Source of the DNA: Candidatus Zhuqueibacterota bacterium | Lineage (GTDB): Bacteria > Zhuqueibacterota > Zhuqueibacteria > Thermofontimicrobiales > Thermofontimicrobiaceae | Direction of reading: 5' to 3' | Length of the DNA stretch: 64,000 bases | Assembly (NCBI GenBank): GCA_049322915.1 | Contig: JBMOPW010000035.1 | Coordinates: forward strand, 32,001 to 96,000 | Shown: positions 36,001-39,000 of the stretch, piece after piece | Layout: each line of letters begins with the position of its first letter | Position numbering within the stretch: position 1 is the first letter of the stretch | Position numbers: made by a program

Positions 36001-39000
36001 TCGGGAGGATTTGTACTATCGGCTCAACGTGATTCCCATTGAAATTCCTCCGATCAAAAAGCGCCCGGAAGACATCCCGCACCTGATAAAACATTTTTTG
36101 AAAAAATTTTCATTGATCTATAATAAAAACATACACGACATCGATGATACTGCGCTCGAATTACTCACCCATTATCCCTGGCCGGGCAATGTCCGCGAAT
36201 TGGAAAATGCCCTGGAGTACGCGTTTGTGCGGACGAAAGATAAAAAGATTATCGAAGCGATTAAATTGCCGCCGAATGTTCGGGAGCACGCTGACTTATC
36301 GTTGAATCAACCAGGCGCGTGTGAAATCGATAGCGAGTCTTCTCACATCATGCACTTACTGGAAAAATATCAATGGAATAAAACGAAAGTCGCCAAAGAA
36401 CTTGGCATTGGTCGCAGCACGCTCTGGCGCAAAATGAAATCCTTCACTGAGAAGGCCTGAGTGAATCGGGGCGCTGCCATCCGCCCTGTCGAACCATTTG
36501 AAATCACGCTACCAGTGAATCATCAGTTCGGCCATTGCTCAATGAAATAGCCGTCGAATACTGTCATGGAGAAATTGTGTTGAAGAAAGTTGAGCGCAGT
36601 TGCTTGACGCCATCAGCAGCAGCGAGAGGGCAGATTTGGAGTGCAGTTTCAGGATCAACTATCATCGTGGCTGTGTTTCGTTTCAAGCGAAACACTTTGT
36701 TTCACAAAGGATATATCTATTAATTTCAAACAACTATCATCTCGTTTTTTCTTACAGTCAGATAATTGAAACACTCTGCCCGGCGCCGAATAAGAAAATC
36801 TGGCATGTTTTTATTGAAGTTATTCTGATGGCATGAAATTTGATGTAGCTCCGCTATTTGAGGGAACTATGTCTGAAATGTTAGGAAATCAATATTTTTT
36901 AACGCGCAAATACGCGCTTGCCGCTCGGGAACTCGAATCGGCTCTGGTGAAAGATCCGCGAAGTAAAGTCATTCGACGGAAGCTCATCATTTGTTTTATC
37001 CAGACCGGCAACATTGACAAGGCGGAAGAACTGTTTCTGGACCTCGTCCAACAGGACGTATCGTTCATCATTGAATCAGATCCTATCATCGATGACTGTC
37101 CCTGTCCGGAACTGGTAAACGATGTCGAGGCGCAGATAGCCGGCGAGAAAAACTCGCCTTCGTACATGTTGAAGTTGGGCATGCTCTGGTTGTATTGTGA
37201 CATTAGAAAATCGATTCACTATTTCACGAGTTTGCAAAAAATTGAACCGAACAATCAAATGGTAAAAATTGTGCTATTCCATCTCAAGTCATTTTTGTTG
37301 AGCAAAGAGGTATTGTAGCACTTTGGCGTAAGTAAGAAACACTGGAAATAATCACTGTATTTTAATCCGTCGTTACATGTCATTAAATTGTTAGCAGAGA
37401 GGAACAAATGAAAGTAAAACTTTTTACCATTTGTAGTCTGTTGCTACTCTCCATGATTCTTATTTTTACCTGGGGATGTACTGATAAATACAAACCCGCT
37501 CCCAGCGTTTTCTCCTCTGTGGAAGAATCAAGTTGTACGCACTGTCACCTTGATGCAACTCTACTGAAACAAGTGGCCACGCCAATTCCCCCGGATGAAG
37601 GCGAATCAGGCGAGGGTTGAGGCGGCGCTGTGTCTCAGTTAGAGGCATGGGAAATGGTACTTGTTGATAACAGTTTTCTGAATACAAAACACGGCAGCTT
37701 CGGATGCACGTCATGTCACAAGGGTAATAAAGACGCGTACGACAAAGAGACCGCTCACGTCAGCCTGGTCGCTGCGCCGAGCGAAAATGATGCCACGTAC
37801 TGCTCCGGTTGCCATGAGGATATTGTGGCTCATTATGCATCCTCCCTTCACAAGACACAAAAAGGGTACTTCAAGCGAATCGAAAATCGATTGGGGTACA
37901 GCATAGAAAGTGACGCGGGCATAATGGAGAAATATGATGAGGAATGCGGGAAATGCCATGTCAGTTGTGGGCAATGCCACATCTCCCGACCGGTTTCAGT
38001 AAAAGGCGGATTCATCGCCGGGCACAATTTTGGCGCGCCGACGCGGGATAACAATTGCGTGGCATGTCACGGCAGCCGCGTTGGGGCAGAATACCTCGGA
38101 CAAAACGAAAACTATGCGGCTGATGTCCACCGCTACAAACCAGGCGGCAGCAATTGCACCATGTGCCACACCGGCATGGAAATGCACGGGACCGGCGAGG
38201 AATTCGACTACCGTTACCTGAATACGGATATGCCGCGCTGTGAAAATTGTCATGCAGATGTCGACACAATTAATTTCTACCATCAAAAGCATGTGTCCAG
38301 CACCACGATACCGACGCTCTCCTGTCAGGTATGCCATTCACAGGATTATAAAAACTGCAATAGCTGCCACACCGGCGGCGCCGGCATTACCGGGGATTCC
38401 TATTTCAAATTCAAGATTGCCAAGAATAAATTCAATCTCGAATCTGCAAACCGTACCTATGATTACGTGGCAGTCCGGCACATTCCGATTGCGCCGGACA
38501 CATACGCAAGTTGGGGAATAACTGATTTACCAAATTACAACACTGAACCTACGTGGAAATATGCAACGCCGCACAACATTCAACGCTGGACCGCTCGGAC
38601 AGATACGACGGGTAGCACCCGATGCTCGAGCAAATGCCATAATTCGACGACCTATTATTTAACTTCAGCCGACTTATTCGACTATGAAGTCGAAGCAAAT
38701 AAAGATATTATTATGGACGACAAACTCAAATAGAAACACTTAATTCATTTCAAATCATTTAATTTAGGAGGTACAGAGATGTACAAGAAAATTCCTGTTC
38801 TGTTCTTGATTTTATCATTAGCTTTGTTCATGGTAGTTGGTTGCGATGACGACGAAACCACGGAACCTGAAGAAATTAATGAGTTCGAACTGTTAACGGA
38901 AGTCGGTGATGTTTACGTTGCTAATTACACAACCCAGGGTGGGTTGGGCGTCAACACGACCATCACTGCTGTATTCGACAACCTGACAGACGGCAATACC

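Follow-up and report, generated by a model that had tools for sequence, protein, structure and literature searches.

Within the window, i.e. the whole 64,000-nucleotide stretch of contig JBMOPW010000035.1 (Candidatus Zhuqueibacterota bacterium) that was analysed, a multihaem cytochrome c gene on the plus strand was split by gene callers at an in-frame TGA codon. The question raised by this locus is whether the TGA closes a short gene or is read as selenocysteine (Sec), as an earlier note had claimed, and what a protein of this kind would do. The first open reading frame (37408-37620) encodes 70 amino acids and is closed by the TGA, after which the frame is open to the TAA at 38731-38733; across the 441 codons of 37408-38733, the TGA at 37618-37620 is the sole in-frame stop. 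A signal peptide with a lipobox (37408-37479, plus strand) was read from the sequence (..FTWGC), with Cys24 as the lipid-anchor residue, and this lipobox Cys is kept in 14 of 14 aligned orthologues. The export signal is confined to the upstream piece, and the piece behind the TGA lacks one, although its ten haem sites need export for haem attachment. The two adjoining calls are one gene, as had already been proposed, and 37408-38733 encodes a single lipoprotein cytochrome of 441 residues. These positions are window coordinates; a placement of the locus at these values minus 32000 was rejected, and that place holds glycosyltransferases and an O-antigen-ligase-like membrane protein.

The selenocysteine codon and the hairpin behind it

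The TGA (37618-37620, plus strand) corresponds to residue 71 in the motif ...SGEG-U-GGAVSQLEAW.... The conservation of this codon was followed at several levels. Full-length matches (E 3.9e-149 or better) were obtained in 14 of the 21 genomes of the order, its own included, each of them with exactly one TGA and no further stop; in one of the remaining genomes only 108 residues matched, weakly, to a different cytochrome, and six gave no match. At the level of the phylum (167 genomes), one TGA was found in 38 of 46 matches. Among 79 readable loci from the genomes of other species, the codon for residue 71 is TGA in 73 and TGT or TGC (Cys) in 6, which bears out the claims of a conserved UGA and of rare Cys homologues; the same codon in 73/79 loci of different species places the TGA far beyond chance. 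Moreover, a pair of Cys-containing homologues (L034/L035) is nested within a Sec clade.

The protein database yielded 2314 proteins at E<=1e-10. As expected from the claim of a large family called mostly as N-terminally truncated proteins, 116 of the best 120 are shorter than 400 amino acids and cover 72-83% of the query, and of the four longer ones Cys is present in two (GEG-C-GG or GES-C-GG), the other two lacking both Cys and Sec at this place. Among the 43 database proteins that span the Sec site, 17 have Cys (e.g. P0024 and P0119) and 26 have neither, so part of the wider family can do without this residue.

The genome carries the machinery for Sec insertion: selB (364.6 bits), selA directly upstream of it (561.6 bits), two copies of selD (408 and 374 bits), one of which itself contains a TGA, and a tRNA-Sec with the anticodon tca. 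TGA is otherwise the commonest stop, closing 828 of 1925 long open frames, and is therefore not reassigned genome-wide.

A SECIS-type hairpin is predicted at 37630-37648 (plus strand), beginning 9-10 nucleotides past the UGA, with a stem formed by 37630-37637 and 37641-37648 and an apical loop around G-U-U; it is present in both the predicted MFE and the centroid folds. In an alignment of 72 sequences, the stem (columns 13-20 and 24-31, counted from the U of UGA) was paired in 79.9% of cells compared with 71.1% in shuffles, a value reached by 0/500 of them, whereas slid controls were 37.7-56.3% paired. About 20% of cells are unpaired, and a subgroup of the relatives misfits the consensus stem. 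Changes on both sides were observed in 7 of 8 stem pairs, and the covariation score was 0.260 as against 0.128 in shuffles (0/500), in agreement with the co-varying hairpin described earlier. Because the folding energy of the 79-nucleotide stretch around the hairpin was no better than that of shuffles (z -0.04), it is the comparative evidence that carries this element. An Rfam scan of 37400-37900 found no relevant model, the lone match (RAGATH-30, E 3.4) being due to chance.

Taken by its sequence, the recoding of UGA-71 has all the hallmarks of Sec, and the incorporation of selenium is predicted; the earlier claim is upheld by the single TGA, the Sec machinery, the conservation of the codon, the Cys homologues and the hairpin. 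If the TGA were instead a true stop between two genes, or had arisen as a pseudogene lesion or through misassembly, the split made by the gene callers and the unremarkable single-sequence fold energy would be accounted for. We consider the probability of this practically negligible, as it is contradicted by the conservation data: 73 independent species genomes have TGA at this very codon and 6 have Cys, no second stop interrupts the frame, an export signal is lacking from the downstream piece and the hairpin co-varies.

Haem sites, fold and relationship to OTR

The cytochrome contains ten CxxCH motifs, at residues 43, 100, 132, 180, 187, 217, 250, 278, 306 and 317. Additionally, a C-terminal CSSKCH at residue 406 (38623-38640, plus strand) is a probable eleventh haem-binding site of the Cx3CH type. 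It had been left out of the earlier count of ten, which has to be corrected to eleven. A motif of this kind is found at this place in 80 of 80 relatives (Cx3CH in 67, CxxCH in 11 and Cx4CH in 2), and C406, C410 and H411 are invariant in an alignment of 40 sequences; the protein thus probably has eleven haem sites, compared with only ten conserved His residues outside the motifs. Of the 24 Cys residues, 22 lie in haem sites, one is the lipobox Cys and one belongs to the signal peptide, and neither this inventory nor the alignments of relatives revealed a conserved free Cys that could partner Sec.

The AlphaFold model of the cytochrome has a mean pLDDT of 84.8, with a weakly modelled Sec loop (pLDDT <50 at residues 65-70). 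A wide VIA-align structure search found OTR, with model residues 92-441 as the matching range, and hhalign against the OTR family gave a probability of 98.8% (E 8.5e-17). A Foldseek search of the model against the PDB gave no match at E<=0.001, the sequence of the single cytochrome, searched against solved structures, gave NrfA-type matches only (E 0.21-0.69), and the NCBIfam scan found no family for the cytochrome. With the OTR model TIGR04315 (cut-off 375 bits) the locus scores 12.6 and 9.2 bits, and a genuine OTR is encoded elsewhere in the genome (596 bits). From these comparisons, the core of the cytochrome has an OTR-like fold and is a remote relative of OTR.

The differences from OTR (Shewanella oneidensis SO4144, PDB 1sp3, TIGR04315) are considerable. 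The cytochrome has three more haem sites, an N-terminal extension with the Sec loop and a lipid anchor, and a gene obligately linked to a rhodanese. The OTR segments G-K and N-N-F-C, invariant in 12 OTR sequences, are absent from the alignment of the cytochrome family, which thus misses both the Lys ligand of the catalytic haem 2 (Lys56 in OTR; PMC3769277) and the Cys of the NNFC segment, which in OTR precedes the haem-2 motif. The registers differ in the N-terminal half: haem 1 of the cytochrome corresponds to OTR haem 1 in an alignment with a single OTR, and haem 3 does so in the profile-profile alignment. The latter fits the structural range of 92-441 better, and we claim no placement of Sec relative to the active-site residues of OTR. 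In-frame stops were found in 0 of 34 matches to OTR-family genes in the 167 genomes of the phylum. Sec-containing OTR members are listed as 'GenBank annotated' in the available part of a 2026 review (PMC13188914).

The cytochrome family is represented in 411 species-level genomes of the scanned collection and, at 50% identity, by 490 protein clusters. Its members come mainly from KSB1, Calditrichota and other FCB-type lineages, and most of the hosts are uncultured lineages from sediments, caves, vents and bioreactors. It was found neither in NCBIfam release 20 nor in the available part of the 2026 selenoproteome review (PMC13188914) nor in literature searches, and within these sources it can be called new, as had been claimed.

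The rhodanese partner, the gene neighbourhood and MccSep

The downstream partner named in the earlier note is a tandem-domain rhodanese lipoprotein (38779-39783, plus strand), which follows the cytochrome after a gap of 45 nucleotides and adjoins it in 77 of 80 loci from many phyla. It matches Pfam Rhodanese in two stretches (E 1.6e-22), has two CYTGQT active-site loops and carries an acidic stretch behind its lipobox Cys. The active-site residues C124 and C279 are invariant in 47 aligned sequences. The best NCBIfam matches are sulfurtransferases of the MoeZ type, GlpE and PspE, all far under the cut-offs. The same idea of a sulfur carrier supplying a polysulfide reductase is known from Wolinella succinogenes, in which the periplasmic rhodanese-like protein Sud feeds the membrane-linked Psr; Psr, however, belongs to the molybdopterin enzymes and has neither haem c nor Sec.

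The next gene on the plus strand (39814-41058, likely start 39865) encodes an outer-membrane beta-barrel, whose AlphaFold model (pLDDT 82.1) shows a signal helix and 22 predicted strands, with the C-terminal residues ..HFSW. Foldseek matched it to the Occ/OprD, AlgE and FimD barrels (E 5e-9), and no chain of an Mtr complex was among the matches listed. It is followed by an exported 12-haem cytochrome c of 292 amino acids (41071-41949, plus strand), with 12 CxxCH, a signal peptide and a Pfam cytochrome c7/c3 match, and by a tetrahaem lipoprotein cytochrome of 140 amino acids (41993-42415, plus strand), with four CxxCH, a lipobox (..ILSC) and a weak Pfam c3 match. The barrel is present in 35 of 80 loci and absent from the other 45, and a homologue of the 12-haem cytochrome is found in 34 of 80. 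The string of genes begins with a small TPR protein (36833-37318, plus strand; Pfam TPR_19, E 2e-7), which precedes the cytochrome gene in 19 of 80 loci. Its likely regulator is a PAS-domain sigma-54-dependent activator (35135-36460, plus strand; Pfam Sigma54_activat, E 6.9e-71, with PAS and HTH_8), with a homologue in 25 of 80 loci. A scan for sigma-54 promoters gave 36 sites, with 39.45 expected by chance, and none was convincing ahead of the TPR gene. In a search of sequencing runs, none of RNA was listed for 37300-39900. On the minus strand (32616-34577), Pfam matches and the motif count identify a membrane cytochrome in which a part with 11 CxxCH is joined to a cytochrome b (Ni_hydr_CYTB) domain; its position makes it a candidate electron donor on the quinol side.

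This gene content resembles that of the Geobacter extHIJKL genes, whose products, according to the available part of PMC6148476, include a rhodanese lipoprotein, a barrel of the outer membrane and ExtKL, a cytochrome with Sec. The available part of PMC13510729 equates ExtKL with MccSep, a polysulfide reductase that depends on Sec and is indispensable for S0 respiration, with five haem motifs, a haem-ligating C239 and U325 in a C-terminal Ig-like domain. The cytochrome shares with MccSep (GSU2937-2936, Geobacter sulfurreducens) its export, its multihaem c-type character, a single Sec encoded by an in-frame UGA with a hairpin behind it, a gene split by gene callers, homologues of the Cys type, and accompanying genes for a rhodanese lipoprotein and a barrel of the outer membrane (ExtH and ExtI in Geobacter), the last likeness being an analogy of gene content. 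In both, Sec lies beside glycine in a loop (D-G-U-P in MccSep, G-U-G-G here), and the Sec loop of MccSep has two conformations in the crystal.

In contrast, eleven haem sites stand against five, Sec is N-terminal (71 of 441) rather than in a C-terminal Ig-like domain, the fold is OTR-like, and MccSep is hosted by Desulfobacterota and Nitrospirota rather than by KSB1, Calditrichota and FCB-type lineages. The cytochrome has no conserved free Cys equivalent to C239 that could pair with Sec, so the mechanism of MccSep cannot be transferred to it as such. Sequence kinship was not detected: the family profile matched the PDB chains 9wt8/9wt9 at E 0.69 (12 bits), the ExtKL model NF040886 (cut-off 250 bits) gave no match to the cytochrome gene at E<=10, its best match in the genome lying elsewhere (34.6 bits), and no MccSep chain was among the matches listed in either structure search, the Foldseek library ending on 2026-04-08. 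Both profile comparisons bear out the earlier view that the family is distinct from MccSep.

Proposed function and its significance

Most likely, the cytochrome serves at the cell envelope to reduce polysulfide or another form of sulfane sulfur by means of its Sec. The homology to OTR, together with eleven haem sites as against ten conserved non-motif His residues, points to an enzyme rather than a wire. The adjoining rhodanese with its two invariant active-site Cys residues provides the link to sulfur, and a function of the polysulfide type is supported by the resemblance of the gene content to ExtHIJKL, MccSep being a proven polysulfide reductase. We give a probability of about 0.6 to the whole reading, in which UGA-71 is read through as Sec and a lipid-anchored eleven-haem cytochrome on an OTR-like core acts as a terminal reductase of sulfane sulfur (polysulfide or S0, possibly also tetrathionate or selenite). 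The single frame, the sequence hallmarks of Sec recoding, the linkage to the rhodanese and the OTR-like fold are results of this analysis; substrate, direction of the reaction, role of Sec, topology and any physical complex are what we infer. In the proposed scheme, UGA-71 would be read as Sec under the direction of the SECIS hairpin, giving an exported, lipid-anchored cytochrome c with an OTR fold in roughly residues 92-441 and with haem 1 and the glycine-rich GEG-U-GG loop in a family-specific N-terminal extension. The tandem rhodanese lipoprotein would bind sulfane sulfur and pass it on, the selenolate of the flexible loop would attack the S-S bond, and electrons from the haem chain would then free sulfide. 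These electrons would be drawn from the quinol pool by way of the neighbouring cytochrome-b fusion, the 12-haem cytochrome and the 4-haem cytochrome, and the 22-strand barrel would serve as an outer-membrane passage for substrate or partners.

The haem that lacks a conserved His partner invites a bolder proposal, which we regard as quite unlikely, namely that Sec71 is its missing sixth ligand or the sole chalcogen of the active site. Ligation of the haem by Sec71 would create a natural selenolate-haem c centre, in which one residue takes the place of both the Cys-ligated haem and the Sec of MccSep. Selenium-dependent sulfur respiration would then have been invented independently in this family, on an OTR scaffold, with a spread over KSB1, Calditrichota, Krumholzibacteriota, Gemmatimonadota and further uncultured lineages.

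The classical activity of rhodanese is that of a thiosulfate sulfurtransferase, and OTR is the only clear structural and profile relative of the cytochrome. Both points, together with the sub-threshold matches of the neighbour to MoeZ-type, GlpE and PspE sulfurtransferases, would suit an OTR/TsdA-like thiosulfate-tetrathionate oxidoreductase, possibly oxidative, in which Sec forms a thiosulfate adduct and the rhodanese acts on thiosulfate. We hold this to be unlikely, since the genome already has a genuine OTR and the cytochrome, with only 12.6 bits against 375, is without the G-K...NNFC residues. A decidedly improbable assignment is that to a porin-cytochrome conduit carrying electrons out of the cell to metals or electrodes, with Sec and rhodanese as accessories for redox protection or maturation. 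The gene content would fit the Mtr/Pcc type (a barrel, which matches generic barrels, an exported cytochrome and a lipoprotein multihaem cytochrome); the 22-strand barrel, the 12-haem cytochrome and the tetrahaem lipoprotein in the string would suit a mineral-directed conduit equally well, with the cytochrome-b/c fusion upstream. However, the pair conserved across phyla is that of cytochrome and rhodanese (77/80), rather than the barrel or the 12-haem cytochrome, the retention of a costly Sec codon in 73/79 loci argues for catalysis, and the fold is that of an enzyme family. Still less probable is a system for the reduction or detoxification of selenite, tellurite or chalcogen oxyanions in general. 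The available part of PMC13510729 reports that MccSep reduces selenite too, and that of PMC6148476 (citing Jahan et al. 2018) that deletion of extI in Geobacter impairs selenite and tellurite reduction; selenite is, however, the poorer substrate of MccSep (PMC13510729, same part), and no feature of the locus is specific for selenium oxyanions.

Returning to sulfane-sulfur reduction, multihaem selenoenzymes in elemental-sulfur respiration were demonstrated only in 2026, in Geobacter. If our reading is true, the cytochrome family would be a second, unrelated solution to selenium-dependent sulfur respiration, differing from that of Geobacter in its fold, in the position of Sec and in having no Cys partner. 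It is probable that the family stands for a widespread enzyme of selenium-dependent sulfur reduction, which is split into two pieces in databases: at the UGA, the part with haem 1 and Sec is lost and the remainder is labelled hypothetical, so that a probable sulfur-cycle enzyme is missed in metabolic reconstructions of these phyla. The family would also offer a natural test of what Sec contributes to haem-based cleavage of S-S bonds.

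In-frame UGA and downstream hairpin

In one frame of the window, a 70-codon ORF at 37408-37620 is closed by TGA, and 9 bases further on the frame was called again as a 367-codon ORF that ends at 38733. When the TGA (37618-37620) is read as selenocysteine (Sec, U), a single 441-residue multihaem cytochrome c is obtained (the Sec cytochrome; 37408-38733, plus strand), in which U71 is the sole internal stop and lies in the context ...PPDEGESGEG-U-GGAVSQLEAW.... The two calls were already joined into one gene in the earlier note, and our reading agrees. The N-terminus carries a signal peptide and a lipobox with Cys24. 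No signal peptide was found on the post-TGA piece, which has ten haem sites; since these require export for haem attachment, the signal of the upstream piece supports a single gene. We put the probability that the gene encodes a selenoprotein at about 0.95, and at the level of sequence it shows every feature expected of a bacterial selenoprotein.

The source genome has selA (561.6 bits) immediately upstream of selB (364.6 bits), a tRNA-Sec with the anticodon tca and two copies of selD, one of which (contig C2, 57472-58398, minus strand) contains one in-frame TGA and is thus a probable Sec-containing selenophosphate synthetase. TGA is the stop of 828 of the 1925 open frames of at least 400 codons in this genome and of 8 of the 18 genes checked in the window; there is no general reassignment of TGA.

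Of the 21 genomes of the order Thermofontimicrobiales, the source included, 14 gave full-length matches (E 3.9e-149 or better), every one of them interrupted by a single TGA and by no further stop; in one more genome the sole match was a weak one to a different cytochrome, and the other six gave none. Across the phylum Zhuqueibacterota, the family is present in 43 of 167 genomes, with one TGA in 38 of 46 matches. In species-representative genomes, 421 stretches fitted the search pattern and 411 encode a relative, of which the best 80 were used. A contig end truncates one of them, and among the 79 loci readable at the Sec codon, 73 have TGA and six TGT or TGC, with the GEGUGG motif in 68. The Cys forms fall into two groups in a quick maximum-likelihood tree of the 79 rows (midpoint root), where one Cys pair (L034/L035) is nested within a well-supported Sec clade. 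In the 43 examined database proteins that cover the site, the residue is Cys in 17, mostly within G-x-x-C-G-G, and another residue in 26. The best 120 database matches include 116 shorter than 400 aa, covering 72-83% of the Sec cytochrome, and the examined sequences among these short proteins begin directly past the Sec site, the pattern left when a gene is split at the UGA. The conserved UGA, the rare Cys homologues and the mis-called, truncated relatives described in the earlier note were all recovered. Four truncated cytochromes (P0012, P0023, P0069 and P0073) carry the JGI label 'thiosulfate/3-mercaptopyruvate sulfurtransferase', probably taken from the neighbouring rhodanese.

A SECIS-type hairpin is predicted by both the MFE and the centroid folds, with its stem at 37630-37637 paired with 37641-37648 (plus strand), that is, columns 13-20 with 24-31 when the U of UGA is column 1, and a G-U-U loop. 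The folding energy of the 79-nt stretch around it does not improve on that of shuffles (z -0.04). The co-variation reported earlier was reproduced in an alignment of 72 distinct sequences (the window and 71 distinct sequences of the 73 TGA relatives): standard pairs occupy 79.9% of cells versus 71.1% in shuffles, and the covariation score is 0.260 versus 0.128, neither value being reached in 500 shuffles. Changes on both sides were seen at 7 of the 8 pairs, versus a shuffle mean of 4.7 (19 of 500 shuffles reach 7), and sliding the 3' partner by 1-3 columns as a control gave 37.7-56.3% pairing. The stem is kept although the encoded residues differ in some relatives, such as L084 (P-L-E to G-V-P). 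About one fifth of the cells are unpaired, chiefly from the subgroup ...CCCCGCUGGAAG..., whose hairpin seems to be shifted. No Rfam model matched the hairpin, for which the comparative support across the aligned relatives is strong.

A 6-bp hairpin, GCUUCC-N6-GGAAGC, was also observed at the position of the SECIS stem, about 12-33 nt past the Cys codon, in one clade of Cys-type loci (L071, L075, L080 and L082, labelled Bacteroidota/Chromatiales), with one apparent compensatory change in L082 (U-A to G-C). A relic, a side effect of protein constraint and a hairpin with some different role are all conceivable.

Haem sites and fold

Ten CxxCH sites were located in the Sec cytochrome (residues 43, 100, 132, 180, 187, 217, 250, 278, 306 and 317), the number claimed in the earlier note, which has to be raised to eleven. 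The further site, CSSKCH at residue 406, follows a T-W-K-Y-A-T-P-H-N motif and is present in all of the best 80 of the 411 relatives, as Cx3CH in 67, CxxCH in 11 and Cx4CH in two; in an alignment of 40 sequences, C406, C410 and H411 do not vary. The exchange of Cx3CH with the canonical CxxCH argues for a genuine eleventh haem site. In the same 40 sequences, ten non-motif His are invariant or nearly so (95, 117, 148, 206, 241, 260, 292, 295, 358 and 389), so that one of the eleven haems may be without a His sixth ligand, with Lys or Met possible instead. All 24 Cys lie in the eleven sites except the lipobox Cys and one Cys of the signal peptide, and the mature protein has no free Cys.

Pfam gave only generic multihaem domains and NCBIfam no family match. 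The AlphaFold model (40 sequences) is confident (mean pLDDT 84.8, pTM 0.79) except in the linker at residues 26-39 and in the Sec loop at 65-70. A genuine octahaem tetrathionate reductase (OTR, TIGR04315) is encoded in the source genome (contig C7, 2644-3906, minus strand; 596 bits) and has no in-frame stop. The Sec cytochrome itself scores 12.6 bits against TIGR04315 (cut-off 375), yet profile comparison gave 97.7% probability (E 1.8e-12) with this paralogue and 98.8% (E 8.5e-17, 189 columns) with a 12-sequence OTR alignment, which makes the family a distant offshoot within the OTR superfamily, outside TIGR04315. Haems 3-9 fall on OTR haems 1-7 in the profile-profile alignment, a register that would leave the lipid anchor, haem 1, the Sec loop and haem 2 as an extension at the N-terminus; a different register is given by the single-sequence alignment. 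According to the available text of PMC3769277, the OTR Lys ligand is Lys56, on haem II; neither this ligand nor the invariant NNFC segment of OTR has a counterpart in the Sec cytochrome. The family profile also matched PDB chain 28pb_A ('Cytochrome c', 278 aa; E 2.4e-5) over a region that takes in the conserved W-K-Y-A-T-P-H-N and the C-terminal haem site, and part of the protein may have a closer structural relative in this chain.

Relation to known multihaem selenoproteins

Multihaem selenoproteins are already known as a kind, among which the present family is a new variant. In the available part of the selenoprotein table of a 2026 review (PMC13188914), the relevant families are ExtKL (NF040886), the GSU2204-family CXXCH barrel protein (NF041027) and a Sec form, marked 'GenBank annotated', of the OTR family TIGR04315; none of these three models matched the Sec cytochrome, TIGR04315 remaining below its cut-off. 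We found no ten- or eleven-haem Sec cytochrome with a rhodanese partner in the literature searched, which did not extend to the supplementary tables of selenoproteome surveys, where an unnamed entry may exist. In the available text of the KSB1 genome survey (PMC9012183), selABD genes are noted, no selenoprotein family is named, and the terms 'multiheme' and 'rhodanese' are absent.

MccSep (ExtKL), the Sec cytochrome of Geobacter, is described in the available text of PMC13510729 as a polysulfide reductase on which S0 respiration depends, with five haems, haem 2 ligated by His and Cys239, and U325 in a D-G-U-P loop of a C-terminal Ig-like domain. All of these structural features are absent from our protein; the two are separate families. 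The earlier note had drawn the same distinction, and the sequence check of kinship detected none: the family profile aligned with PDB MccSep (9wt8, 9wt9 and others) over a single 33-residue stretch (E 0.69, 12 bits), and NF040886 did not match at E<=10.

Gene neighbourhood and proposed function

The Sec cytochrome is second in a tight string of six genes with successive gaps of 89, 45, 30, 12 and 43 nt. It is preceded by a TPR protein (36833-37318) and followed, as reported earlier, by a rhodanese, here a tandem rhodanese lipoprotein (38779-39783) that has a pair of CYTGQT loops and, past the lipid Cys, an acidic run; then come a barrel (39814-41058; generic outer-membrane barrel matches, AlphaFold pLDDT 82.1, 22 strands), an exported 12-haem cytochrome (41071-41949) and a tetrahaem lipoprotein (41993-42415). 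The string is preceded by genes for a PAS sigma-54 activator (35135-36460) and for an 11-haem cytochrome c fused to a cytochrome-b (Ni_hydr_CYTB) membrane domain (32616-34577, minus strand), an architecture that resembles Geobacter CbcL. At 48 nt before the start of this fusion gene, a sigma-54-like site (34625-34640, minus strand) was seen with one mismatch; such sites show no excess over chance in the window (36 found, 39.45 expected).

When neighbours were surveyed by tblastn (E<=1e-5) in the best 80 of the 411 loci, a rhodanese was found in 77, the barrel in 35, the 12-haem cytochrome in 34, the sigma-54 activator in 25 and the TPR protein in 19. In two of the three loci lacking a rhodanese, a contig end truncates the side in question; the third is a 13-kb locus without one. 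Both rhodanese active-site Cys are invariant in 47 aligned sequences (that of the window and those of 46 among the 77 relatives, chosen for complete ORFs of 315-370 aa that begin with ATG), and the conserved unit appears to be the Sec cytochrome with a two-site rhodanese.

Elsewhere in the window, two neighbouring genes (46258-47430 and 47507-48301, both minus strand) encode proteins that join a response-regulator receiver to a lipoyl-carrier domain of the glycine-cleavage H-protein type (Pfam Response_reg and GCV_H); such an output domain is unusual in two-component systems, and the genes adjoin HAMP histidine kinases. A 1919-residue protein (26428-32187, plus strand) combines FG-GAP and Kelch repeats with Ig-like domains and, at its C-terminus, a type-9-secretion sorting domain, and a glycosyltransferase-like cluster with an O-antigen-ligase-like membrane protein, labelled by sequence reading, lies at 3669-9640. 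This cluster occupies the position to which the coordinates of the earlier note would shift if 32000 were taken off; they already count along the window.

To our knowledge, Geobacter extHIJKL is the only characterised system of this gene content. The acidic N-terminus of the rhodanese is reminiscent of the Bacteroidota lipoprotein export signal, and could leave the protein surface-exposed, as proposed for ExtH. The extHIJKL genes encode, in the available text of PMC6148476, a rhodanese lipoprotein, a 21-strand barrel, a small protein and a Sec cytochrome; a Sec cytochrome, a rhodanese lipoprotein and an outer-membrane barrel likewise occur together at our locus.

Because of this analogy and the enzyme-type (OTR) fold, we regard Sec-dependent sulfane-sulfur reduction as a plausible function, at slightly better than even odds. 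The competing proposals are that the Sec cytochrome acts in thiosulfate or tetrathionate chemistry, that it belongs to a mineral-directed conduit, or that it reduces selenite. In sulfane-sulfur reduction, the rhodanese would carry persulfide or polysulfide sulfur, the selenolate, on its glycine-rich loop, would attack the S-S bond, and electrons from the haem chain would release sulfide, with the cytochrome-b fusion and the small cytochromes linking the protein to the quinone pool. As the Sec cytochrome has no free Cys, this chemistry would not copy the Cys-haem/Sec pair of MccSep; Sec alone may act beside, or even on, a haem without a His partner.
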